A DNA stretch of 40,310 nt from a virus (taxonomy: Duplodnaviria > Caudoviricetes), in the IMG/VR virus record IMGVR_UViG_3300011339_001230, positions 1 to 40,310 of that record; one strand, written 5' to 3'. The notes beneath the pieces were generated by a model that saw nothing but the letters and a program-made list of their open reading frames with translations, was not told the DNA's origin and ran no database searches. Position 1 is the first letter of the stretch. Every line of letters begins with the position of its first letter. A program made the position numbers and the translations under genes. Positions 4,470 to 36,949 of the stretch are shown piece by piece.

Positions 4470-4712
4470 ATTTCACTTGTTCAATTAAATATTTATCCTT
4501 ACATTTGTAAAAGATTTGACACCTACAGGTGATGAAAGATACTCGGAAAGTTAAATCTAAAAAAAAATACAAATAAATTTGGTAGATTGAAAAAGTCACC
4601 ATATATTTGTAAAAGATTTGAGACGGACAACGATTAAGATACAAGTCTCGAATCTTTAAAAAAAAGTTTAAGAAAAATTTGACAGTTTGAAAATTTTGAC
4701 TTAAATTTGTAA
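4470..4712 (+). promoter_or_regulatory. Three tandem Bacteroidota-type promoters about 100 nt apart
   Basis: TAnnTTTG at 4500, 4602 and 4702, each followed by TAAAA; short hairpins lie between them. Confidence 0.7.
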
Positions 4713-4751: not shown

Positions 4752-5600
4752 GATTATCCATCAGGAAGTTGATGATGAGACCTTAGGGTTGATTCTGAGA
4801 CAACTGTAAATGATAATGGGCCGTGTATGGTCCTTAAATAAACTACGAAAGTAGGATAAAGTGACCTCCCCCGTGTTGAGGAGGTTGCGGTTTCGAAAGG
4901 AACTCGAGTACACAAGTGGGATATCACAAGACCTTTAGTACCGAGGGTAACACTGTAGGGAAAGTGGTCAGGTGACTTGGCAAAGTGGATTGTCAAGTTG
5001 AGGTGGGAACACCAACAAGAATAACCCATAGGAATCAAGTAAGAAATGTAGCCTCCAACTACAATATTGCGGGTTCCATTACCGAAGGGTACTTAAAACC
5101 GAAAGGTAAGGTAGAGAACGAGTGGTGTCGCTACTACCCCTAAGGAAGACCTACCAAGGTCTCTTTATGAAGTAATCTGAAAGTATGGAGATAGGGATAT
5201 CTCACGGAGTAGTTTAGTATTCTGTCGCTCAAAAGGAGACGGAACTTACGGTGGACCACTACTCTGACACATCCACGACACAATCTAAAATTATTAAAAA
5301 TAATTTAAGGAAAAGTGTCCATCAGGTTTAAGTGAAAGGTCACTACCTAATCACTGGCTGTCAGTGGTACAGAAAGACCCCAAGTCTGACTGTAGTTTTA
5401 CGAAAAACCTTTAATCCCGCAAGGATGAACTGGGGTGGCAACCTCGGAAAGAGTTAAGTAATAAGAGAGTAACTTAAACCTCAAGGAGTGGTAAACCTAA
5501 AAGACCGTGACTGAGAAATACTTCTCAAAAGGAAGTGGATAAGAAGGGAAACAATAATCCTTCAAAAGGTTCTCACAGAAAGCTGTAATCTCAGGCTTAG
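4752..5600 (+). ncRNA. Large structured ncRNA, GOLLD-like (boundaries approximate)
   Basis: ~850 nt without a credible ORF, GC above flanks, GNRA-capped hairpins (CTAC-GAAA-GTAG, ACC-GAAA-GGT, TCC-CGCAA-GGA), directly upstream of a tRNA in a phage; family assignment is from size and context. Confidence 0.65.
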
Positions 5601-13397: not shown

Positions 13398-13574
13398 ATG
13401 GAAGAGAATACAGAGATGAATAAAGTACATACAATCAGATTTGGTGAGTGGATTGCTCAAAATTACGAACCCTGTGGTGATAAGAGTTGGAAGAAAAGGT
13501 TCCCTAAGACATCAGAGGAAATGATGGAATGTTTTTTTACAGAGGAAATTTATAAAGAGTTTTTGAAATCATAG
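13398..13574 (+). CDS. Small hypothetical protein (58 aa, not in ORF track)
   Basis: MEENTEMNKVHTIRFGEWIAQNY...; stop codon overlaps the following tRNA-like element. Confidence 0.5.
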   Translation: MEENTEMNKVHTIRFGEWIAQNYEPCGDKSWKKRFPKTSEEMMECFFTEEIYKEFLKS

Positions 13575-13706
13575 TCAAGTGGCGGAAATGGAAGAGTACT
13601 CTCCAGGCAGACGTGACGCATGGTTATAGCAGCGTGGGTAATAAAGGTCAATGCGACTGGCTAACTATAATGGCACCCCGTGAAGGTTCGAACCCTTCCT
13701 TGACTA
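13573..13706 (+). ncRNA. Expanded tRNA-like RNA, copy 1
   Basis: AGTCAAG/CTTGACT-A acceptor, TGGCGGAAATGG D-arm start, GAAGG-TTCGAAC-CCTTC T-arm; 134 nt, no 7-nt anticodon loop. Confidence 0.75.
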
Positions 13707-15123: not shown

Positions 15124-15159
15124 GGTTTTAGCCTTATATTTGTAGAAGTTATTTGAAAT

Positions 15160-15184
15160 GCTGGGATGATGGAATCGGTAGACA
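15160..15184 (+). pseudogene. 5' fragment of a tRNA-Leu-like gene
   Basis: GCTGGGA-TG-ATGGAATCGGTAGACA after a promoter and boxA (15147); no matching 3' half. Confidence 0.6.
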
Positions 15185-15212
15185 GAAATGGGTAGACGAT
15201 ATATTTATACAT

Positions 15213-15857
15213 ATGAGACCATATGTATATAAATTAGAAAATTTGGACGGAGAGTTTTATTATGGGGTTAGATGGGATTATGAAGGAGAACCCGAAAATG
15301 ACTTACTTAAAGAATATTTTAGTTCATCCGTGACTGTTAAAAAAATGATTTCTGAAAATGGAATTAATTATTTTAAAGGTACAATACTTAAATTGTTTGA
15401 AACAAAAGAACAAGCTCTTGATTATGAATACACTCTAATAAAGGAATCTATTAATAATGATAAGTGTTTGAATAGAGCAATGGGTAAATGTACTATTTGG
15501 AATGATGAGTTGAAGAAAAAAGTTTCAGAAAGTGTAAAGGAATTATGGAAAAATCCTGAATTTAGGGAAAACCACCTTAAAAGTCGGTCAAATATTATAA
15601 ATCATAATTTTGGACTTAAACCTTGGAGAAATGTTTGTTCAGATTTGGAAAGTTGGAAAAAAGCTATTATAATTTATAACGATTATAAGACTGAAAAGTG
15701 GAACTTACACAAATATGGTTTTGGGAGATTTTTTCTAATAAAAAGATATGGAATCAAACAAGGCTCGGCTAGAAGGTTAGTTGATTTGTTAAGAGAAGGT
15801 TGGAACCCATATGATGATTTGGATTATTTGAATTTCATAGATATGCCCGGATGCTGA
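15213..15857 (+). CDS. GIY-YIG homing endonuclease (Seg-like)
   Basis: PYVYKLE...FYYGVR, YFSSS, ALDYE, CLN motifs; TATTTATA at 15202; 3' end overlaps tRNA-Leu. Confidence 0.75.
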   Translation: MRPYVYKLENLDGEFYYGVRWDYEGEPENDLLKEYFSSSVTVKKMISENGINYFKGTILKLFETKEQALDYEYTLIKESINNDKCLNRAMGKCTIWNDELKKKVSESVKELWKNPEFRENHLKSRSNIINHNFGLKPWRNVCSDLESWKKAIIIYNDYKTEKWNLHKYGFGRFFLIKRYGIKQGSARRLVDLLREGWNPYDDLDYLNFIDMPGC

Positions 15858-15927
15858 AATGGTATACAGTGCAGACTTAAAATCTGCTGAGCAATTGCTC
15901 GTGAGGGTTCGAGTCCCTCTCCGGGTA
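15845..15927 (+). tRNA. tRNA-Leu(TAA)
   Basis: GCCCGGA/TCCGGGT; GCAGA-CTTAAAA-TCTGC; long variable arm. Confidence 0.95.
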
Positions 15928-15963
15928 CCGAAGACTTTTTTGTACCTAATGATGAAAATTTTT

Positions 15964-17762: not shown

Positions 17763-17797
17763 AAGATTCTCCGTATATTTGTAGAAGTTCTTTGACA
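17751..17797 (+). promoter_or_regulatory. Promoter plus boxA heading the ncRNA array
   Basis: TTGG...CGTATATTTGT followed by AGTTCTTTGACA (17786-17797). Confidence 0.7.
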
Positions 17798-17803
17798 TTA
17801 ACA

Positions 17804-17925
17804 GGTGGGGTGACAGACGAAAGTTAGATTATCCAAGTCAATCGTAGCTACGGTGTTTTAAAACACGATGGATATGCAACAAGTAGAGTTATAGGAAATG
17901 AGTCGCTATCATTTCTCCCCCACCG
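17804..17925 (+). ncRNA. Structured RNA with tRNA-like ends
   Basis: GGTGGGG/CCCCACC closing stem; GAAATGA-GTCGCTA-TCATTTC hairpin in the T-arm position. Confidence 0.55.
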
Positions 17926-17934
17926 CATATTAAA

Positions 17935-18022
17935 AGGTTGATTGGGATTTTGGGGCTAGCACAATAGCGAGAAACGCCAATCGTAAAAGTAGATGTCCAC
18001 TCCCCCATCTTCTACTTATCCT
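17935..18022 (+). ncRNA. Structured RNA module with possible pseudoknot
   Basis: GATTGG/CCAATC stem; AAGTAGA/TCTACTT hairpin whose loop CCCCA can pair with TGGGG. Confidence 0.45.
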
Positions 18023-18029
18023 ATACTTG

Positions 18030-18112
18030 TGTGTTGTTCCCTTGAGAAAGGAAAGGAGTAGAGCTTAGTGACACTAGAGTCATCACTACAACACAGAGGG
18101 ATTCTCATCCTC
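18030..18112 (+). ncRNA. Kissing-loop RNA motif, copy A
   Basis: TGTGTTGT/ACAACACA, TTCC/GGAA with loop TGAGAA, GAGGG/TCCTC with loop TTCTCA. Confidence 0.7.
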
Positions 18113-18117
18113 AATAT

Positions 18118-18199
18118 AGTCAGGTGGCGCAAGGGTAGCGCGATGGTGGACCGAAAGGAAGCAAACCATAGGTTACAAGTTCAAATCTTGTCCTGACTA
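18118..18199 (+). ncRNA. Expanded tRNA-like RNA, copy 2
   Basis: AGTCAGG/CCTGACT-A; D and T arms present; ATGGT/ACCAT stem closes a 17-nt loop containing CC-GAAA-GG. Confidence 0.75.
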
Positions 18200-18203
18200 C
18201 AAA

Positions 18204-18279
18204 TGTGTTGTTCCCTTGAGAAAGGAATTAGTTGGTAGGTCATCCAGTTATGACACAACACAGAGGACTTCTCATCCTC
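18204..18279 (+). ncRNA. Kissing-loop RNA motif, copy B
   Basis: Same conserved blocks as 18030-18112 with a different middle hairpin. Confidence 0.7.
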
Positions 18280-18285
18280 AAATGA

Positions 18286-18365
18286 TACAACCGAGATTTT
18301 TAAATCTCCTACTTACTTACGAAAGGAAGGGTGTTGTAACAGATAGCATATAGTAGTGATGCTAT
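18286..18365 (+). ncRNA. Structured RNA module with possible pseudoknot
   Basis: TACAAC/GTTGTA, GAGATTT/AAATCTC, ATAGCAT/ATGCTAT; loop AGTAG pairs with CTACT. Confidence 0.5.
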
Positions 18366-18372
18366 TAAACAT

Positions 18373-18482
18373 AGTCAGGTGGCGGAATGGTAGACGCTAC
18401 ACGTAAGTCCAACGATGACCAAAGGCATGATGACCTGCGGAGTTACTGGTTGGTAATACACGTTCGATTCGTGTCCTGACTA
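18373..18482 (+). ncRNA. Expanded tRNA-like RNA, copy 3
   Basis: AGTCAGG/CCTGACT-A; Leu-type D arm GGCGGAATGGTAGACGC; ACACG-TTCGATT-CGTGT; 110 nt. Confidence 0.78.
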
Positions 18483-18497
18483 CAAAAATAAAAAGTT

Positions 18498-18680
18498 ATG
18501 TTAGAGAAAATTTACTTTACTGTGGTAATCGTATTAGTTTTAGTAATTTTTGGTAGTTGGATTTTAATGAATGTAGATGAAGAACGTGAAGATATGTGGT
18601 ATAAAATCACTCTAACAACTTCAATGTTAGAGATGATGTTTATCTTTGGGGGTATGATTGCATCTATATGGTTAAACTAA
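18498..18680 (+). CDS. Small two-TM membrane protein
   Basis: 60 aa, two hydrophobic segments. Confidence 0.65.
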   Translation: MLEKIYFTVVIVLVLVIFGSWILMNVDEEREDMWYKITLTTSMLEMMFIFGGMIASIWLN

Positions 18681-18684
18681 AAAT

Positions 18685-18999
18685 AGTCAGGTTAAAGAAA
18701 TACAGAGTGGCGCAGGTTGATACTACTTCGCAAGTAGATTGATACAGAGTAAAAAGAGGTGGGGGAAACCACTCATTAACCCACCCAATTTTGTACCACG
18801 AAGCTTACCATAAGAACAGCTCACTTCAGTGGTCATTTCAAAACTATGAATAGCCCAAGGCATAAGTAGTGGAGGTCGGTCAGGTAATGCGTAATGTGGA
18901 AACGGCTATCACATCCTTAAAAACACCACGGTCCATAACCATTTGGACGCGAGAAGTTATAGGGTTGCATCGTTGTGGGTTCAAGTCCCACCCTGGCCA
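18685..18999 (+). ncRNA. Expanded tRNA-like RNA, copy 4 (5' end at 18685 or 18878)
   Basis: GTGGG-TTCAAGT-CCCAC-CCTGGCC-A 3' end pairs with GGTCAGG (18878) or, less well, AGTCAGG (18685); several internal hairpins. Confidence 0.55.
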
Positions 19000-19075
19000 C
19001 AAAAATTTAACAAATTGGATTTGGTAGATTAGAAAAACGAATGTATATTTGTCAAATCAATAACAGAAACAATAT

Positions 19076-19198
19076 ATGAAGACACTTAAAAAATTTCATC
19101 AAGAGCTTGAAAAAGGATGTCATCCGTTTGACCCTATGATTATTTACATTTTTGGTGTTATTATTGTTGGTTATTCATTGATACAGATAATTTTTTGA
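19076..19198 (+). CDS. Small single-TM protein (40 aa)
   Basis: ORF after a TATATTTG promoter. Confidence 0.45.
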   Translation: MKTLKKFHQELEKGCHPFDPMIIYIFGVIIVGYSLIQIIF

Positions 19199-19214
19199 TA
19201 ACTAAAAATAATAT

Positions 19215-19326
19215 AGTCAGGTGGCGGAATTGGTAACGCACATACAACGAGAGCTAGGCCGGCTCGCCTGTAAAACCAGTAAGTTGTATGGTGGTATAAA
19301 TAGGGGTTCGAATCCTCTCTTGACTA
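19215..19326 (+). ncRNA. Expanded tRNA-like RNA, copy 5
   Basis: AGTCAGG/CTTGACT-A; 8-bp CATACAAC/GTTGTATG stem enclosing 34 nt instead of an anticodon loop. Confidence 0.78.
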
Positions 19327-19414
19327 CAAAAAATAAGGTGACGCTACGGTCGTAAGGTTCGCGAGCCGAGAAGACAAAAAGCCTAAGTATGCAGATGAGC
19401 TCGCATAGCCTTAA

Positions 19415-19508
19415 AGTCAGATGGCGAAATTGGTAGACGCAGCCTCAAGAAAGGTTGGACTAATAGGAAGAATAAATCCACTTGCAGGTTCAAGTCCTGT
19501 TCTGACTA
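19415..19508 (+). ncRNA. Expanded tRNA-like RNA, copy 6
   Basis: AGTCAGA/TCTGACT-A; Leu-type D arm; AGCCT/AGGTT stem with a 6-nt loop; enlarged variable arm. Confidence 0.75.
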
Positions 19509-19590
19509 CAAAAAATTGTTGATAAAAAAATCATCAATATTTTTTTACTTTGAAAAATCGTAGTATCTTTGTTCTCTAAATAATAATACA

Positions 19591-20109
19591 ATGATGAGCA
19601 TACTAATTATAATCGGAGCGGCAATCACAGTTTTTGGAATTGTAATTCTTTCGGCAAATCACAGTTATACAAAACGTGAAAAGATGCTGAAGACTTGGCA
19701 AGTTGGAGATAAGTTATATCCACGTCCTTGTTTTTATAGAGATAGTCCTTCAGCAAGTAGTGCGTTTACTAAATCAGGTAAGAATTTTCTCACACTTGCT
19801 GGATTTGATATGTATTACGTATTTGTTAAAATAAGTGGAGTGACACACAAATTGTCATTCAATGAGATTGATTACAATAAATCGGCAATGTGGAGAAAAA
19901 ATTACGAATCTTGCAAGGAATTTATGGGAACCGAGCCTGATTTTAATCCAGTTATTTTGGATAGTAATACCTCAAAAGATACAATTGAAGGTAAACCCGT
20001 TGAATTATTGACCGAGGTTGAATGTCAAATTTATTTGAAACAAGCGCTTGAGGAAGAGAACTTTGAGTTGGCCGAAAAGATTAGACAACAAATGCAAAAA
20101 TATAGATAA
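19591..20109 (+). CDS. Membrane-anchored protein with C-terminal UVR-like coiled coil
   Basis: N-terminal TM; LKQALEEENFELAEKIRQQM. Confidence 0.75.
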   Translation: MMSILIIIGAAITVFGIVILSANHSYTKREKMLKTWQVGDKLYPRPCFYRDSPSASSAFTKSGKNFLTLAGFDMYYVFVKISGVTHKLSFNEIDYNKSAMWRKNYESCKEFMGTEPDFNPVILDSNTSKDTIEGKPVELLTEVECQIYLKQALEEENFELAEKIRQQMQKYR

Positions 20110-20110
20110 T

Positions 20111-20326
20111 ATGAAAAACAAATATAATTTTTACACTCCCAATGACTCATTTGGAACGGCGATATCCTACACCATAATTGATGAGGATGGTAAAATGTGG
20201 GTTGGTAATGGTGAGTATGAGTCCCAAGTAAATTTTTGTCCGATGACCGGCAAAAAAGCCCCTACGCAACTTAAAGTGGCGGAAGTTTGGGAAAATGGAA
20301 CTGAAAAATATGAAAATGAAATTTAA
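20111..20326 (+). CDS. Hypothetical protein
   Basis: ATG after the previous stop; NFCPMTG motif. Confidence 0.65.
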   Translation: MKNKYNFYTPNDSFGTAISYTIIDEDGKMWVGNGEYESQVNFCPMTGKKAPTQLKVAEVWENGTEKYENEI

Positions 20327-20329
20327 ATT

Positions 20330-20737
20330 ATGATAAGATTTATTGATAAAAAAATTGGAGATGAATATTATTCATGCCGCGATAATTCAACCTCATTTAA
20401 AACTCATATAATTGACAATATCTCAAAACATAAAATGGATACCGATGTATCAATAAACTCAAAACGGGCATCTTTAAACGCCGATGATGTTCTCAAAACA
20501 AGAGTTAGAGTTTCAGGATATTATCACGAACATGCAATAATATTTGCAAACAAATCTGAAGCAATTAGATTTACAAGAGCACAAGCCCTTCGCGAGTTTA
20601 AAACACTTAAAGAAGAAGCTCACAAATCAATTGAGAAGGTTAAAAATTTTAGAAAACAATATTGGGAACAACTCAATAAAGAATGGATTGATAAACATAT
20701 TGAAGAAATTGAACGAATTGAGCGAGAATCACTTTAA
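20330..20737 (+). CDS. Hypothetical protein
   Basis: 135-aa ORF in an operon-like run. Confidence 0.7.
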   Translation: MIRFIDKKIGDEYYSCRDNSTSFKTHIIDNISKHKMDTDVSINSKRASLNADDVLKTRVRVSGYYHEHAIIFANKSEAIRFTRAQALREFKTLKEEAHKSIEKVKNFRKQYWEQLNKEWIDKHIEEIERIERESL

Positions 20738-20741
20738 AACT

Positions 20742-20969
20742 ATGGAAAATAATCACATACCACTTGAAGAAATGTTGAGCGATTTGGAAATCACCAACAG
20801 AGAAATTGCCCAATACGAAGCCGAAAATGAGGTTTTGATGAAGGACTTCCAACGAAACAGGGTTGCAATTTACCTAAATGATGGTAGAATTGGTCAAAGG
20901 AGGACTTTTGTTGCCAAACTAGAAAAAATAATCAAGGAGACCTACCCTGAACATAAAATTGAAGAATAA
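20742..20969 (+). CDS. Hypothetical protein
   Basis: Start moved to the ATG after the previous stop. Confidence 0.65.
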   Translation: MENNHIPLEEMLSDLEITNREIAQYEAENEVLMKDFQRNRVAIYLNDGRIGQRRTFVAKLEKIIKETYPEHKIEE

Positions 20970-20981
20970 AATAGAAAAAAC

Positions 20982-21012
20982 TTGACAAACATATAAGTTT
21001 GTTGTACTTTTG
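20982..21012 (+). promoter_or_regulatory. Promoter of the tRNA array
   Basis: TTGACA-17 nt-TACTTT; the same site also fits TAnnTTTG (TACTTTTG). Confidence 0.65.
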
Positions 21013-21040
21013 TAAAACAATTGATATTTAATATAAAACA

Positions 21041-21145
21041 ATGAAACAAATTTTCGCACATACTAATCTTCTTTCAGTGGCCGGCCCGTATAACATCGAG
21101 TCAACGCAGAAGGATATTACCTTGTTCGGGGTTTGTGAGAGCTAG
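21041..21145 (+). CDS. Putative leader peptide (34 aa)
   Basis: MKQIFAHTNLLSVAGPYNIESTQKDITLFGVCES*; A-rich initiation context; the last codons contain the antiterminator strand. Confidence 0.7.
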   Translation: MKQIFAHTNLLSVAGPYNIESTQKDITLFGVCES

Positions 21146-21205
21146 AAAGTGTATCATCAAATATATAACAAACCCTGAACAACAAAAAGTTCGGGGTTTT
21201 TTTTT
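21122..21205 (+). promoter_or_regulatory. Terminator/antiterminator switch (attenuator)
   Basis: Terminator AAACCCTGAAC/GTTCGGGGTTT plus T-run (21170-21205); alternative 15-bp pairing of 21122-21136 with 21168-21182. Confidence 0.8.
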
Positions 21206-21217
21206 GTTGATACATTT

Positions 21218-21229
21218 AGTTCTTTGACA
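21218..21229 (+). promoter_or_regulatory. boxA-like site
   Basis: AGTTCTTTGACA 11 nt before the first tRNA. Confidence 0.65.
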
Positions 21230-21240
21230 TATTGGAAAAT

Positions 21241-21312
21241 GGTGGTGTAGCTCAGAGGCAGAGCATCTGACTGTTAATCAGAGGGTCGGGATATCGTAAT
21301 TCCCCACTACCG
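21241..21312 (+). tRNA. tRNA-Asn(GTT), atypical T-loop
   Basis: GGTGGTG/CACTACC; TCTGA-CTGTTAA-TCAGA; T-loop ATCGTAA. Confidence 0.85.
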
Positions 21313-21322
21313 CAAAAAAAAC

Positions 21323-21399
21323 GCTCGGTTCGTCTAATTGGTTAGGACATCTCCCTTTCACGGAGAAGCTTACGGGTTCGAGTCCCGTACCGAGTACCA
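21323..21399 (+). tRNA. tRNA-Glu(TTC)
   Basis: TCTCC-CTTTCAC-GGAGA; encoded CCA. Confidence 0.95.
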
Positions 21400-21402
21400 T
21401 AT

Positions 21403-21483
21403 GGGAGTGTCGTATAGTGGCAATTACATCTGACTGTAAATCAGACGCTTTAGGCTTCAGAGGTTCGAGTCCTCTCACTCCCA
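21403..21483 (+). tRNA. tRNA-Tyr(GTA)
   Basis: TCTGA-CTGTAAA-TCAGA; variable arm. Confidence 0.95.
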
Positions 21484-21489
21484 CTTATT

Positions 21490-21564
21490 GACTTCGTAGC
21501 TCAGTTGGTTTAGAGCAATACACTTTTAATGTATGGGTCCTGGGTTCGAATCCCAGCGGGGTCA
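21490..21564 (+). tRNA. tRNA-Lys(TTT)
   Basis: ATACA-CTTTTAA-TGTAT. Confidence 0.95.
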
Positions 21565-21571
21565 CTTATAC

Positions 21572-21646
21572 ACATTTGTGGTGAAATTGGTTTTATCACG
21601 CTAGTCTCCAAAACTAGTATTTTTGGTTCGAGTCCAAACAAATGTG
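21572..21646 (+). tRNA. tRNA-Trp(CCA)
   Basis: CTAGT-CTCCAAA-ACTAG. Confidence 0.92.
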
Positions 21647-21652
21647 CGACAA

Positions 21653-21723
21653 GCCTCTATAGTTAAAAGGTATAACGATTGATTTGTAATCAATTGTTCT
21701 TGGTTCGATTCCGAGTAGAGGCT
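21653..21723 (+). tRNA. tRNA-Thr(TGT)
   Basis: ATTGA-TTTGTAA-TCAAT. Confidence 0.93.
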
Positions 21724-21730
21724 CAAATAT

Positions 21731-21805
21731 TCTCGCGTAGCTCAGGTGGTTTAGAGCATTTGACTGATATTCAAAAGGTCGCTGGTTCGAGTCCAGCCGT
21801 GAGAA
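21731..21805 (+). tRNA. tRNA-Ile(GAT)
   Basis: TTTGA-CTGATAT-TCAAA. Confidence 0.93.
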
Positions 21806-21811
21806 CTATTA

Positions 21812-21886
21812 CGAGATGTAGCTCAGTTGGTTTAGAGTACTTGGTTTGGGACCAAGGGGCCGCTGGTTCGAGTCCAGCCATCTCGA
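21812..21886 (+). tRNA. tRNA-Pro(TGG)
   Basis: CTTGG-TTTGGGA-CCAAG. Confidence 0.95.
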
Positions 21887-21897
21887 CAATTTAAAAT

Positions 21898-21972
21898 GGG
21901 GGCGCATGTACCAAGGCTTGGCGAGAAACACTTGCAATGTTTCTGTGGTCGTTTCGATTACGACCGTCTCCA
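21898..21972 (+). tRNA. tRNA-Ala(TGC), atypical D arm
   Basis: AAACA-CTTGCAA-TGTTT; G3:U70; A73. Confidence 0.85.
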
Positions 21973-21983
21973 CAATATAATAT

Positions 21984-22056
21984 GGTACCATAGCTCAGTT
22001 GGTAGAGCACTTGCCTGAAGAGCAAGGTGTCGGTGGTTCGAATCCACCTGGTACCA
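21984..22056 (+). tRNA. tRNA-Phe(GAA)
   Basis: CTTGC-CTGAAGA-GCAAG. Confidence 0.95.
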
Positions 22057-22066
22057 CTTTTTATAA

Positions 22067-22139
22067 GCGGGTATAGTATAAAGGCTTATTATGTCGGTCT
22101 TCCAAACCGAGGATGTGAGTTCGATTCTCACTACCCGCT
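22067..22139 (+). tRNA. tRNA-Gly(TCC)
   Basis: TCGGT-CTTCCAA-ACCGA. Confidence 0.95.
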
Positions 22140-22146
22140 CTTATAT

Positions 22147-22218
22147 GGTCTATTCGTTCATCGGCTAGGATGCTACCCTGTCACGGTAGTGAGGCGGGTT
22201 CGATTCCCGCATAGACCG
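22147..22218 (+). tRNA. tRNA-Asp(GTC)
   Basis: CTACC-CTGTCAC-GGTAG. Confidence 0.95.
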
Positions 22219-22225
22219 CTTAAAT

Positions 22226-22297
22226 TGCCCTGTAGTGAAATGGCTATCACACAACACTTTGACTGTTGTATTTCTGGTTCGAGTCCAGACGGGGTAA
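22226..22297 (+). tRNA. tRNA-Gln(TTG)
   Basis: CAACA-CTTTGAC-TGTTG. Confidence 0.93.
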
Positions 22298-22304
22298 CTA
22301 AATT

Positions 22305-22389
22305 AGAGGAGTCGCATAGTGGTTTAGTGCACCGGTCTTGAAAACCGGAGTACCTTCGGGTTCCGTGAGTTCGAATCTCACCTCCTCTG
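22305..22389 (+). tRNA. tRNA-Ser(TGA)
   Basis: CCGGT-CTTGAAA-ACCGG; long variable arm. Confidence 0.95.
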
Positions 22390-22395
22390 CAAATT

Positions 22396-22476
22396 GCCCT
22401 CTTGGTGGAATGGTAGACACGTATGCCTTAGGAGCATATGTCTTATGACGTGTAGGTTCGAGTCCTACAGGGGGTA
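22396..22476 (+). tRNA. tRNA-Leu(TAG)
   Basis: TATGC-CTTAGGA-GCATA; variable arm. Confidence 0.95.
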
Positions 22477-22485
22477 CTATTATAT

Positions 22486-22560
22486 GGTGTCTATAGTGTC
22501 AGCGGTTTAGCACGATGGGTTGTGGTTCCATTAGCACCAGTTCGAATCTGGTTAGACACA
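22486..22560 (+). tRNA. tRNA-His(GTG)
   Basis: ATGGG-TTGTGGT-TCCAT; encoded G-1. Confidence 0.92.
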
Positions 22561-22563
22561 CTA

Positions 22564-22611
22564 TTTGTTTTATTGGAATTTTAGCCGTATATTTGTAAAA
22601 GTTATTTGAAA
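22564..22611 (+). promoter_or_regulatory. Promoter plus boxA-like site
   Basis: TTTG...GCCGTATATTTGT followed by AGTTATTTGAAA (22600-22611). Confidence 0.65.
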
Positions 22612-22616
22612 TATAT

Positions 22617-22690
22617 AGTCGGATAGCTTAGGTGGTGAGAGCGGCACGCTTATACCGTGATGGTCGTGGGTTCAACTCCCACTCCGACTA
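22617..22690 (+). tRNA. tRNA-Ile(TAT)
   Basis: AGTCGGA/TCCGACT-A; CACG-CTTATAC-CGTG. Confidence 0.85.
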
Positions 22691-22756
22691 CAACTGAAAA
22701 ATTATAGTCTATCTTAACTCATAGTTTGTTTAAGATATTTACTATAAAACCTAACA

Positions 22757-29567: not shown

Positions 29568-30089
29568 ATGGAATGGTATATTGTAAGAGCGCAAGCAAAT
29601 CGTGAACGAAAAGTTTCTGAACGAATTCTAAAAGAAGCTGACAAAGGAGAACTCAATGGAGTTATCGGACGAGTAATTGTTCCACTTGAAAAAGTATTTG
29701 GGACAAAGGAAGGTAAGAAAGTACAACGAGAGAAGGTAATGTTTCCTGGATATGTATTCGTTGAAACATCTGCAATTGGTGAACTTAAGCAAGTTGTTAA
29801 AAAGATTGACGGAGCGACAGGACTTTTAACGGACAGAGCAGGTAATGTCCAAGTTGTAAAAGAAGCTGAAGTAAAAAGAATGATTGGGCTCCACGAAGAG
29901 AATAAAGAAAAGAGCTTCAGTGATATTTTTGGAATTGGAGATGAGGTAACTGTAACTGAAGGACCATTTGCCTCCTTCAAAGGGAACATCGAATTTATCG
30001 ATAAAGAAAAAGGTAAACTCAAAGTTAATATTCTTATCTTCGGTAGACCAACTACCGTGGAACTTGATGAAACTCAAATTAGAAAGTAA
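29568..30089 (+). CDS. nusG: Transcription termination/antitermination factor NusG
   Basis: WYIV, FPGYVFVE (NGN domain); GDEVTVTEGPFASFKG (KOW); IFGRPTTVEL. Confidence 0.93.
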   Translation: MEWYIVRAQANRERKVSERILKEADKGELNGVIGRVIVPLEKVFGTKEGKKVQREKVMFPGYVFVETSAIGELKQVVKKIDGATGLLTDRAGNVQVVKEAEVKRMIGLHEENKEKSFSDIFGIGDEVTVTEGPFASFKGNIEFIDKEKGKLKVNILIFGRPTTVELDETQIRK

Positions 30090-34145: not shown

Positions 34146-34405
34146 TGCACGATAGAAAAATTATGTTTAGATTATTTTGGGCGATAATTGTAATTGCTTC
34201 GTTGTCGATAATGACATTGATGGTTGGTTGTTCTGAAAGACAAAAACAAAAAGAAGTTGGTGTATATAATGTGGACACTTTATCACATACCAATTACTCC
34301 ATTTATATCATAGATAGTTGTGAGTATATAATTTTCTATGGAGGTAGTTCGACTTGGGGAAGTCATAAAGGAAATTGTAATAACCCAATTCATGCGAATC
34401 ATTGA
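34145..34405 (+). CDS. Small lipoprotein/membrane protein
   Basis: Hydrophobic N-terminus with VGC; IDSCEYI...HKGNCNNPIH. Confidence 0.72.
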   Translation: MHDRKIMFRLFWAIIVIASLSIMTLMVGCSERQKQKEVGVYNVDTLSHTNYSIYIIDSCEYIIFYGGSSTWGSHKGNCNNPIHANH

Positions 34406-35117
34406 AAGATTTGTAAAAAATGATACACCATATTTGGGGAGATTAGTGTTAAGATTGGAGAGAAATTCAAATTATAGAAGTATAAAAAAAGGTTATTTGA
34501 ATAAAATCCATCTAAAATTTTTATTTTTCAAATTAGTTACGAGATTAATCCCTGAGATTAATGATAATAAATTAATCCCTGACCCTGATAAGGTTGCCCT
34601 TATTGAAAAATATACCGGCGGAATAATTGTGGAAAGAAGAGTAAAGGAAAAAGAATTAAATGATGCTTTAATAACTAAGCATAATTTCTTAACTAAAGAT
34701 AAAAGAATGGTTGGGGATATTTTTACGGCGTGGGATTACTTTAAAAATCAAATGGTTATTGTGGAAGAAAATCCAAAAGGGGTTGCTTTAGTTTATAAAG
34801 ATAGAAAACCATATGAATATTTGGTAATTACTGATAACGAAAAAATATCAGTTAAAATAGGGGATAGAATTTTTAACGAGAATTATATGTCCAGTATGGC
34901 TAACTATAAAAAAGAAGATTGGAAAAAATGGTATAAAAAATATATTAGGGATTATCATAGGGCTGATGAAAAAAATAAAAAAAGGATTAAGTCGGGAGGT
35001 GTTATAAAATATATCCCCTATAATATGAGAGGAATACAAAAAATTAAAACTCTAGAAGAAGCTAAAATAACCGCAATAAATATAATTAAACAAATTAGTA
35101 AAGATGATAAAAAATAG
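34392..35117 (+). CDS. Hypothetical protein, paralog of the next gene
   Basis: Shares TPY.GR..L..E, LNK.HL, KYTGG, KIGDRIF with 35104-35859. Confidence 0.75.
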   Translation: MRIIERFVKNDTPYLGRLVLRLERNSNYRSIKKGYLNKIHLKFLFFKLVTRLIPEINDNKLIPDPDKVALIEKYTGGIIVERRVKEKELNDALITKHNFLTKDKRMVGDIFTAWDYFKNQMVIVEENPKGVALVYKDRKPYEYLVITDNEKISVKIGDRIFNENYMSSMANYKKEDWKKWYKKYIRDYHRADEKNKKRIKSGGVIKYIPYNMRGIQKIKTLEEAKITAINIIKQISKDDKK

Positions 35118-35859
35118 AACACCATATGTCGGAAGAGTTAGATTAAAATTTGAAAAAAACCCTCACTATACCGGCGGTAAAAGTGGAGTATTAAATAAAG
35201 TTCATTTAAATCTTGGATTTACAAAACTTGTTAGCCGAATGATTCCATATCGCAACGAAGGTGCTTGGGTTGTTAATAGTGAGTGTACAAAACTTATAAC
35301 GAAATATACTGGCGGTAAGATTGGTACTCACACATTTCATGATGGGGAACACCAACTTCCAAATTCTTTTATGACAAATGACGGAACTTATATTGGTAAT
35401 ATTGAAACGGCTTGGTGGTTTTATAATAACAATCTATATGTTTGTCGCGACTATCCTAGTGGTGTTGCAATCAAATTGAAATCTTATAATCCAAAAATAA
35501 CTTTGGTGAATTACATTGAGGATAACTATGAAAATTTCATAACAGAACAAATAGAAAATGATAACATTGAAGGTTATTATGGGTATAGTCATCGAGGAGG
35601 TTCCTTATTCAAAATAGGTGATAGAATTTTTGACAATTACTACCTACCAACAAGAAGTGATTACACCCAAGAAGAATGGGATGGGTATTATAAAAAATAT
35701 CAAGATAGTTTAAGTAAAGCAGATGAGTTTGACAAAAAGTGGATTGTTTCAGATGGAATTGCATCAGTAATTCCATTTAACAAAAGAGGAAAAAAAGTTA
35801 TTGAAAATTGGAAAGAAGCGAGAGAAGCTGCTATTATTTTATCAAAATATTTAGGATAG
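35104..35859 (+). CDS. Hypothetical protein, paralog of the previous gene
   Basis: YYGYSHRG...FKIGDRIF motif. Confidence 0.78.
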   Translation: MIKNRTPYVGRVRLKFEKNPHYTGGKSGVLNKVHLNLGFTKLVSRMIPYRNEGAWVVNSECTKLITKYTGGKIGTHTFHDGEHQLPNSFMTNDGTYIGNIETAWWFYNNNLYVCRDYPSGVAIKLKSYNPKITLVNYIEDNYENFITEQIENDNIEGYYGYSHRGGSLFKIGDRIFDNYYLPTRSDYTQEEWDGYYKKYQDSLSKADEFDKKWIVSDGIASVIPFNKRGKKVIENWKEAREAAIILSKYLG

Positions 35860-35887
35860 TTCCTATATATTTTGTATTTTTGTATTC

Positions 35888-36949
35888 ATGAACGAGGTTT
35901 TGAATAGATATTATGAGAAAGGATTGGTGTATAAACAAGTACATCCAACCCTTCCTTTAACTATTTGGAATTACTCTGAAAAGGTTCAATACGAAGGTCT
36001 ATTCGATGGTGTTACCCTGAATGCTAGAGGACTTGTTACCGATAACGATGGTAAAATAGCTGCACGACCATTTAAAAAGTTCTTCAATGTAGAGGAGAAC
36101 AAGCATACCCCAACTGAAGAATTTGATGTTTATGAAAAGATGGACGGGTCTTTAGGTATCCTATTTAATTATCAAGGTGAATGGGTAATGGCGACTCGCG
36201 GGTCCTTCACATCAGAACAAGCCGTCAAAGGACTTGAAATACTTCAAAATTATGACTATCAGAAACTTCATAAGGGATATACTTATTTGTTTGAAATCAT
36301 ATACAAAGAGAACAGAATAGTGGTTCAATATGACTACGATGACTTGATACTTCTTGGAATGATAGAAACCAAAACTGGCTATGAAGTTGATTTGTATGGT
36401 GAAGGAAACGATGTTAGATTGAAAAATTTGATATCTAATCTCGGGCTCAAAGTCGTTAAAAAATATGATGGTATAAACGACTATTCTGTCCTCAAAGGAA
36501 TGATAAAGGATAACGAAGAAGGATATGTTGTAAGGTTCTCCAATGGTGACAGAATAAAAATCAAAGGGGAAGAATATTTAAAATTACATAAACTTATGAC
36601 AAATGTATCTACCACCGCAATATGGGAAATGTTAAGTGAGGGTCGTGATGTGTTGGAAATACTGAAAGATGTTCCTGATGAGTTCTATAACAAGATAAAG
36701 ATGTATGTTAGAGATTTAAAATACACTTATTTTTCTTTGAGTGAATATGCCGGAAAAACTCACGATGGGTTCCGATATGGAAAGTTTGGTGATAAGGACC
36801 CCGAGCCAACCAAAAAAGAGTTTGCCGAGTTTTTATCGATGAATAAATATAATCCGGTAATAAGAGCCATATGCTTTGCCATTTGGGACAAAAAGGATTA
36901 TGATAAAATAATATGGAAACATATAAAACCTGAATTTAAAAAATTATGA
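35888..36949 (+). CDS. T4 Rnl1-like RNA ligase
   Basis: RGLV, PFKKFFN, EKMDGSL (motif I), FE, EGYVV, KIK. Confidence 0.9.
   Translation: MNEVLNRYYEKGLVYKQVHPTLPLTIWNYSEKVQYEGLFDGVTLNARGLVTDNDGKIAARPFKKFFNVEENKHTPTEEFDVYEKMDGSLGILFNYQGEWVMATRGSFTSEQAVKGLEILQNYDYQKLHKGYTYLFEIIYKENRIVVQYDYDDLILLGMIETKTGYEVDLYGEGNDVRLKNLISNLGLKVVKKYDGINDYSVLKGMIKDNEEGYVVRFSNGDRIKIKGEEYLKLHKLMTNVSTTAIWEMLSEGRDVLEILKDVPDEFYNKIKMYVRDLKYTYFSLSEYAGKTHDGFRYGKFGDKDPEPTKKEFAEFLSMNKYNPVIRAICFAIWDKKDYDKIIWKHIKPEFKKL

Follow-up and report, generated by a model that had tools for sequence, protein, structure and literature searches.

Leader-peptide attenuation is known from trp and his, and the multivalent leaders of ilv and thr and the leader of pheST are further cases. 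In the trp and his attenuators, a promoter is followed by a short open reading frame (ORF) and by an antiterminator that competes with an intrinsic terminator, and the regulatory codons are tied to what the operon supplies (PMC1183508). In this study we focus on an element with the same layout in a 40-kb virus record, IMGVR_UViG_3300011339_001230 (positions 1 to 40,310, the whole stretch analysed and hereafter the window), which looks like part of a large Bacteroidota phage; there, a 34-codon leader and a terminator stand in front of an array of tRNA genes. The regulatory codons of this leader are tied to the product and placed before segment 2, the antiterminator arm, as in an attenuator, the product here being tRNA. 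Unlike the trp, his, ilv and thr attenuators, the phage leader targets a tRNA array, carries codons of up to about 20 classes, each occurring one or two times where those leaders repeat a single codon, and matches its products at the level of the isoacceptor class, and those products would feed back on leader decoding. As the structural features of trp, his and ilv are present while the one-codon runs and the amino-acid target are not, we do not file it as a member of that group. The nearest functional case is the trn operon of Anabaena PCC 7120, an additional set of tRNA genes that stays off while translation is intact and is induced 100- to 1000-fold by ribosome-targeting drugs (PMC8421152, PMC10272220). 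Its control, as given there, lies in promoter direct repeats and the repressor TrcR, without codon specificity (PMC8421152), whereas the phage locus has a leader; the words 'attenuat' and 'leader' are absent from PMC8421152. In E. coli toiL-topAI (PMC12121999) and B. subtilis vmlR (PMC9226507), as here, an upstream ORF reports ribosome stalling and controls premature termination, but these systems answer drugs and control protein genes, whereas the content of the phage leader tracks the tRNA set downstream. A T-box gave no Rfam match in the window, and no paper on a leader-peptide attenuator of tRNA genes was found in the literature searched, which held few subscription papers. On the evidence of sequence, a codon-listing leader that appears to gate tRNA genes is conserved, statistically strong and, as far as that literature goes, undescribed. 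We consider it probable, from sequence comparison and folding models, that the element is a ribosome-mediated attenuator, with a leader made up largely of codons that its own array reads, in which slow decoding would let transcription enter the array.

The element, all on the + strand, begins with a promoter-like motif, TTG-N20-TAnnTTTG, located by motif search at 20982-21012. This motif, which we take to be of the Bacteroidota sigma-70 type, is the only one of its kind on the + strand from 19543 to 22564, and none lies on that strand between the terminator and the array; by that motif, array transcription must therefore pass the terminator. The leader ORF (21041-21145) has an A-rich start context and corresponds to an ATG leader conserved in relatives. 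Its 34 codons comprise 29 distinct ones and 18 amino acids, without Arg or Trp; in this, as in the position of the promoter, the earlier sequence-only reading of this DNA was right. Every codon is used at most twice, tandem runs of one regulatory codon are absent, and a Pfam search with the leader peptide gave no match. Codons 28-32 (21122-21136) constitute the antiterminator arm, recognised by pairing and by covariation in relatives. They pair with a shared arm, segment 3, at 21168-21182, which can pair instead with the 3' arm of an intrinsic terminator at 21170-21205 (an 11-bp stem at 21170-21199 with an 8-nt loop, and a U-tract). The sensing zone is predicted to comprise codons 2-27 (21044-21121). 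A boxA-like site found by motif search occupies 21219-21230, and thus starts one position later than the 21218 first reported for a boxA; since it lies beyond the terminator, its probable role is to help transcription of the array along and not to control the switch. Three further boxA-like copies in the window each stand directly behind an RNA-gene promoter (15148, 17787 and 22601), and the motif also occurs in the 16S-23S spacer, just 5' of the 23S gene, in a genome titled Bacteroidales (L183).

The tRNA array (21241-22561), called with ARAGORN and Rfam, runs in the order Asn, Glu, Tyr, Lys, Trp, Thr, Ile(GAT), Pro, Ala, Phe, Gly, Asp, Gln, Ser(TGA), Leu(TAG) and His. ARAGORN finds 15 of these at its default threshold; the sixteenth, which brings the number to the 16 first proposed, is an atypical tRNA-Ala(TGC) at 21900-21973 (+ strand), called at relaxed threshold only. 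It folds as a cloverleaf, recurs with 93% identity in two further contigs and has no Rfam match. An atypical tRNA with a TGC anticodon is also kept in other phages (L246, L265, L365, L258, L270 and L286) with 73-93% identity. Behind the array, motif search and tRNA calling place a separate promoter, boxA-like site and tRNA-Ile(TAT) at 22565-22691 on the + strand, not behind the leader. Ile-TAT and Cys were removed by hand from the window array because a new promoter motif begins at 22565; ATA, the codon of tRNA-Ile(TAT), is absent from the leader.

Relatives of the locus were sought by scanning viral contigs with terminator-tail and boxA patterns, which take no account of ORF or codons; a leader-start pattern served for one further scan. 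A first set combined the sites from both kinds of pattern with the window; after one of 90 sites was dropped for too short an upstream sequence, an ATG ORF of 21-49 codons ending near the terminator was present in 89 of 89 usable distinct sites, against 27.9% of shuffles. A second set, restricted to the ORF-blind patterns and the window, had an ATG leader at 98 of 101 distinct sites, the other three being two GTG-start leaders and one chance hit without tRNAs; a hairpin without an ORF was not found among these 101 terminator-plus-boxA sites. Downstream of 95 of the 98 ATG leaders is a tRNA, not the amino-acid synthesis or synthetase target of classical attenuators. On the - strand of two contigs (L283 and L293), second leaders with a GTG start lie upstream of Asp, Met, Ala and Gly tRNAs. 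Over 36 families below 70% identity, the ORF end pairs far better with its own terminator arm (-15.8 kcal/mol) than with the arms of other families (-9.1 kcal/mol; 0 of 10,000 permutations), and the antiterminator beats its own shuffles (p<=0.05) in 28 of them. The distance from stop to arm is 19-37 nt, a range picked post hoc, in 35 of 36 families and in 8.9% of shuffles. Within families, variable columns number 79 at third, 58 at first and 56 at second codon positions. On inspection, the leader peptides vary from family to family in step with the array and show no conserved arrest-peptide motif; what is kept between families is ORF position, arm pairing and codon match. The conserved short ORF with covarying arms that had been suggested as a check on the sequence-only reading is thus found upstream of the tRNA arrays of relatives, and it argues for a translated-leader attenuator as the likely gate of the array.

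The actual signal is a match between the leader codons and the tRNAs of the array. The test used 32 of 35 families, two with fewer than five tRNAs and one with a mis-called ORF being dropped. In these, the own array reads 558 of the 733 codons upstream of the antiterminator (0.76, against 0.50 with swapped arrays), and 0.91 of array classes are present in the leader, against 0.62 with swapped arrays; each result was reached in 0 of 20,000 permutations. The match persists with one leader per lineage at 28, 24, 22 and 16 groups; in none of 200 draws did any of 500 permutations reach it. A control within single genomes took those leaders, 18 in all, for which three or more classes were confined to neighbouring tRNA genes: classes held only by the own array are present in 180 of 189 cases and neighbour-only classes in 26 of 129, and the own array scores higher in 18 of 18 leaders. 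One contig (L235) even carries two complementary leaders 1.6 kb apart, the first with 10/10 of its own classes and 1/8 of the other's, the second with 8/8 and 2/10. Along the leader, the match stands at 0.84-0.97 over the stretch from 13 to 4 codons upstream of the arm and at 0.69 at 3 and 2 codons; it is at chance level from one codon before the arm onward, and likewise at codons 2-3. In and after the arm, 108 of 223 codons are served (0.48, against 0.48 expected). The drop falls about where a stalled ribosome would begin covering the arm.

These results bear directly on the possibility that the leader is a general sensor of slowed translation, responding to antibiotics, elongation-factor damage or energy stress, with codon content playing a minor part. 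The window leader spans most of the code, known upstream-ORF attenuators answer ribosome-targeting drugs (PMC12121999, PMC9226507), and in the folding model any stall in the zone opens the switch, so that such stresses would work as a side input anyway. A general sensor, however, needs no match with the own array, and the match is strong within single genomes and limited to the zone before the arm; we hold this explanation to be unlikely. A multivalent amino-acid-starvation attenuator like those of ilv and thr, sensing amino acids and not tRNA molecules, seems less probable again. The match is equally strong at the amino-acid level (581 of 733), and an uncharged tRNA stalls ribosomes equally; but the match reaches the isoacceptor class, with counts for Leu, Ser, Arg and Ile of 62:17 against 6:21 according to the class held in the array (p 3e-7, pooled and uncorrected for kinship). 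Moreover, the leaders devote 1.36 codons to each of 332 single-copy tRNA classes and 1.88 to each of 40 multi-copy ones, about 1.4 on average, and the sensitivity of an attenuator declines with a lower fraction of regulatory codons (PMC1183508); a leader of this kind would thus respond poorly to mild shortage, and extra tRNA would be no cure for a lack of amino acid. With one or two codons per class, the attenuator that we favour would respond to severe tRNA loss, by cleavage, degradation or lost charging or modification, and not to a mild amino-acid shortage.

The window follows the pattern of the families. Counting the Ala tRNA, 25 of 26 codons from 2 to 27 are served, GTG being the exception, and 15 of 16 classes are present, TGG being missing (joint base-shuffle p 0.0001); without Ala the values are 23/26 and 14/15 (p 0.001). 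The tRNA classes of the window that lie outside the array (Ile-TAT, Leu-TAA, Met and Cys) have no codon in the zone, TTG and TGT occurring within the arm only. Thus the near-pangram of the window leader reflects a near-complete array. A sister family has the promoter, spacer and terminator of the window almost letter for letter, and Glu and Tyr codons occur in the zone of 0 of its 16 leaders and the corresponding tRNAs in 0 of its 16 arrays, while the window has both codons and both tRNAs, a contrast that counts as a single event. What holds as a rule is inclusion of the array in the leader, and not equality of the two. An order of codons following the order of tRNAs was not supported (mean rank correlation 0.09 +/- 0.05 in 30 leaders), and a conserved His codon near codon 7 proved weak as a specific signal, CAY occurring 26, 18 and 18 times over the three frames.

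The sequence-only reading had seen in the leader a candidate sensor of the tRNA pool that samples codons widely, and had remarked that repeated residues often change synonym. The sensing of tRNA supply is supported by the match with the own array; what the leader samples, however, is the classes of that array and not the whole code, and codon diversity as design did not survive comparison with composition-matched nulls. The 29 distinct codons in 34 are more than the genes of the phage carry (mean 22.3, p 0.003), but they do not stand out from base shuffles of the ORF (26.3, p 0.13) or from recodings of its peptide, whether by phage usage (26.7, p 0.16) or with uniform synonyms (28.2, p 0.45). 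Over the 36 families, the mean z values against these nulls are +0.07, -0.83 and -0.41, of which +0.07 refers to same-peptide recoding and -0.41 to base shuffles, with +0.51 against genes. Maximal codon diversity and synonym switching were therefore rejected as a design principle, for the window as for the families.

At the level of RNA structure, the helix between 21122-21136 and 21168-21182 has 15 bp (14 Watson-Crick and one G-U), and its duplex energy is -23.6 kcal/mol, against -17.1 kcal/mol for the terminator arms; the two helices are mutually exclusive, in agreement with the exclusion of the terminator put forward from the sequence. The leader region folds with a z of -5.28, and 0 of 200 shuffles were equally good. 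The ribosome was then modelled as a mask on the folded transcript, with the transcript end at 21195, inside the terminator. The antiterminator has a probability of 0.93-0.95 in naked RNA or with the mask at codons 5, 15 or 22, and about 0.5 with the mask at codon 24; with the mask at codon 26 or beyond it falls to 0 and the terminator rises to 0.95. Masking of the leader end thus releases the terminator in the model, as had been supposed, but the idea that stalling at any upstream codon would antiterminate was too wide, as only stalls up to about codon 23-25 are predicted to do so. In 'half' transcripts, 31-33 of the 36 families capture the terminator 5' arm when the ribosome occupies the first ten codons, and 6-9 of the 36 do so when it stands 8 to 4 codons before the stop.

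Signs of a protector hairpin, pairing segments 1 and 2, are seen across families (-14.1, against -9.8 swapped; 0 of 10,000 permutations), of which 17/36 beat base shuffles and 4/36 beat synonymous recoding. In the window itself this hairpin was not supported (p 0.5), so that an untranslated window leader, with an antiterminator probability of 0.94 at 21195, is predicted to read through. Both observations would suit a developmental shut-off, in which the switch is open early, since host tRNAs read the leader codons slowly, and closes as phage tRNAs accumulate. The preference of leaders for wobble-read codons points the same way: NNY classes have 181 U-ending and 36 C-ending codons, four-codon boxes are G-ending in 48 of 162 cases, and TCG makes up 29 of 117 Ser codons, against 5% in phage genes. 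The G-ending codons may, however, reflect RNA structure, and the shut-off is the same circuit as the attenuator proposed here, the two being inseparable by sequence alone; as a separate explanation we find it quite improbable. More generally, NCG codons, infrequent in the genes of the phage, abound in the leaders, CCG representing 15 of 26 Pro codons, and 49 of their 64 NCG codons lie outside the antiterminator. Control of the terminator by a protein, either the phage NusG or a boxA complex, with the ORF incidental or its peptide acting in trans, is very improbable, since, although the contig codes for a NusG-family protein (29568-30089) and has boxA-like sites, the boxA-like site of the locus is downstream of the terminator and it is ORF position, arm pairing and codon match, not the peptides, that are conserved between families.

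Returning to the ribosome-mediated attenuator, the switch would work as follows. Translation of the leader would closely follow RNA polymerase. A ribosome that reaches codon 26 or beyond is predicted by folding to cover the antiterminator arm, so that the terminator forms, while one that halts no later than about codon 23-25 would leave the arm free to capture the terminator 5' arm as it emerges. New phage tRNAs would then speed leader decoding and close the switch, in a negative feedback loop. Several points weigh against this mechanism. Once the full terminator is transcribed, equilibrium folding favours termination in all states (0.74-0.97), so that read-through must be won kinetically, by the 2:3 helix forming first; and the literature search found no mention of transcription-translation coupling in the host group. 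The antiterminator fails to beat shuffles in eight of the 36 families, and the drop of the codon match at the arm could partly reflect the pairing constraint and not a ribosome footprint. As for the match itself, 175 of the 733 zone codons are unserved and two leaders match poorly (6/20 and 8/22), sister arrays vary from 5 to 15 tRNAs (untruncated loci) behind a nearly unchanged leader, the window has a Trp tRNA without a codon and a Val codon without a tRNA, and a heuristic served to delimit the arrays.

The presence of tRNA genes in phages is a long-standing puzzle, explained mainly by support of codon usage or by the replacement of host tRNAs that have been destroyed. A leader that lists and gates its array implies that the tRNAs are produced as needed, in favour of replacement. 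Phage tRNAs can restore translation under attack by anticodon nucleases, and those of T5 for Lys, Thr and Asn rescue cells from PARIS (PMC12409363, PMC10264068, PMC7824862). These three classes are all in the window array, which suggests a likely purpose, and anticodon-nuclease defence is a plausible trigger of the switch. In the available text of these counter-defence papers, control of phage tRNA transcription was not found, and 'attenuat' appears 0 times in PMC10264068 and PMC7824862. A broader proposal, which we put forward as a serious but tentative possibility, is that Bacteroidota phages have a programmable surveillance of the host tRNA pool: the leader would list the isoacceptor classes of its own array, would be rewritten as the array gains tRNAs, and would free exactly that array when an anticodon nuclease of the host or another tRNA-directed defence removes a listed class, giving an inducible, self-limiting, RNA-only counter-defence. 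Such a system would take attenuation beyond amino-acid operons to the control of tRNA genes, leader sequences would predict the tRNA classes attacked in a host group, and leaders could act as compact reporters of tRNA damage.

The distribution of the leaders was followed further. A pattern that the window too satisfies had 31 viral matches, none of them close kin of the window's own leader; the new ones examined all belonged to the sister family, and eight metagenome matches included no tRNA leader. Among cultured phages, no leader was found at E<=10 among the matches listed (30 of 61 and of 204 records), and a further search gave matches to tRNA genes only. In cellular genome contigs, scanned with a pattern that requires the boxA-like site and is blind to leaders without it, six matches comprised one leader with tRNAs on a 3-kb contig, one rRNA spacer and four without the leader-tRNA layout. 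The 3-kb contig (L182, from a genome titled Saccharibacteria) has promoter, leader, terminator and boxA-like site before Trp, Ser, Gln and His tRNAs, and is probably a misbinned phage piece. The 31 rtcB loci in a sample of 300 further genomes, GC-rich in look and uninformative here, had no such leader. RNA reads yielded only pieces of the tRNAs of other organisms and of relatives (shares <=0.19, no leader-spanning contig), evidence neither way. In another contig (L243), a 20-tRNA array includes a tRNA with anticodon TTA, which would read the stop codon TAA.

Elsewhere in the window, the motif TTG-N18-22-TAnnTTTG lies upstream of many genes (family D1), and two proteins have type IX secretion tails. 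The contig also codes for an Hsp70, two Tad6-like proteins, a T4-type RNA ligase and the NusG-family protein; the last has a KOW domain and could affect pausing, coupling or elongation that depends on boxA. The two Tad6-like (anti-Thoeris) genes and then the ligase occupy 34338-36949, likely a block for counter-defence and RNA repair. Rfam matches in the window are limited to GOLLD and tRNA; the GOLLD RNA (5205-5597, 318 bits) is immediately 5' of a tRNA-Met, with promoter motifs repeated upstream at 4477-4679. At 15148-15929, a promoter and boxA-like site precede a tRNA-like start, a GIY-YIG-like ORF (15153-15857) and tRNA-Leu(TAA), which may represent an endonuclease insertion at a tRNA gene. 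Finally, tRNA-like elements cluster in 13570-13680 and in 17787-19510, behind their own promoter and boxA-like site at 17787. They have in common an acceptor-type stem, GTCAG(G)...C(C/T)TGAC, and a tRNA-like T arm, with variable and often long middles (about 18118, 18370, 19215 and 19415, and more weakly at 13570 and 18684); Rfam scores three of them as tRNA and ARAGORN, at its default threshold, none.

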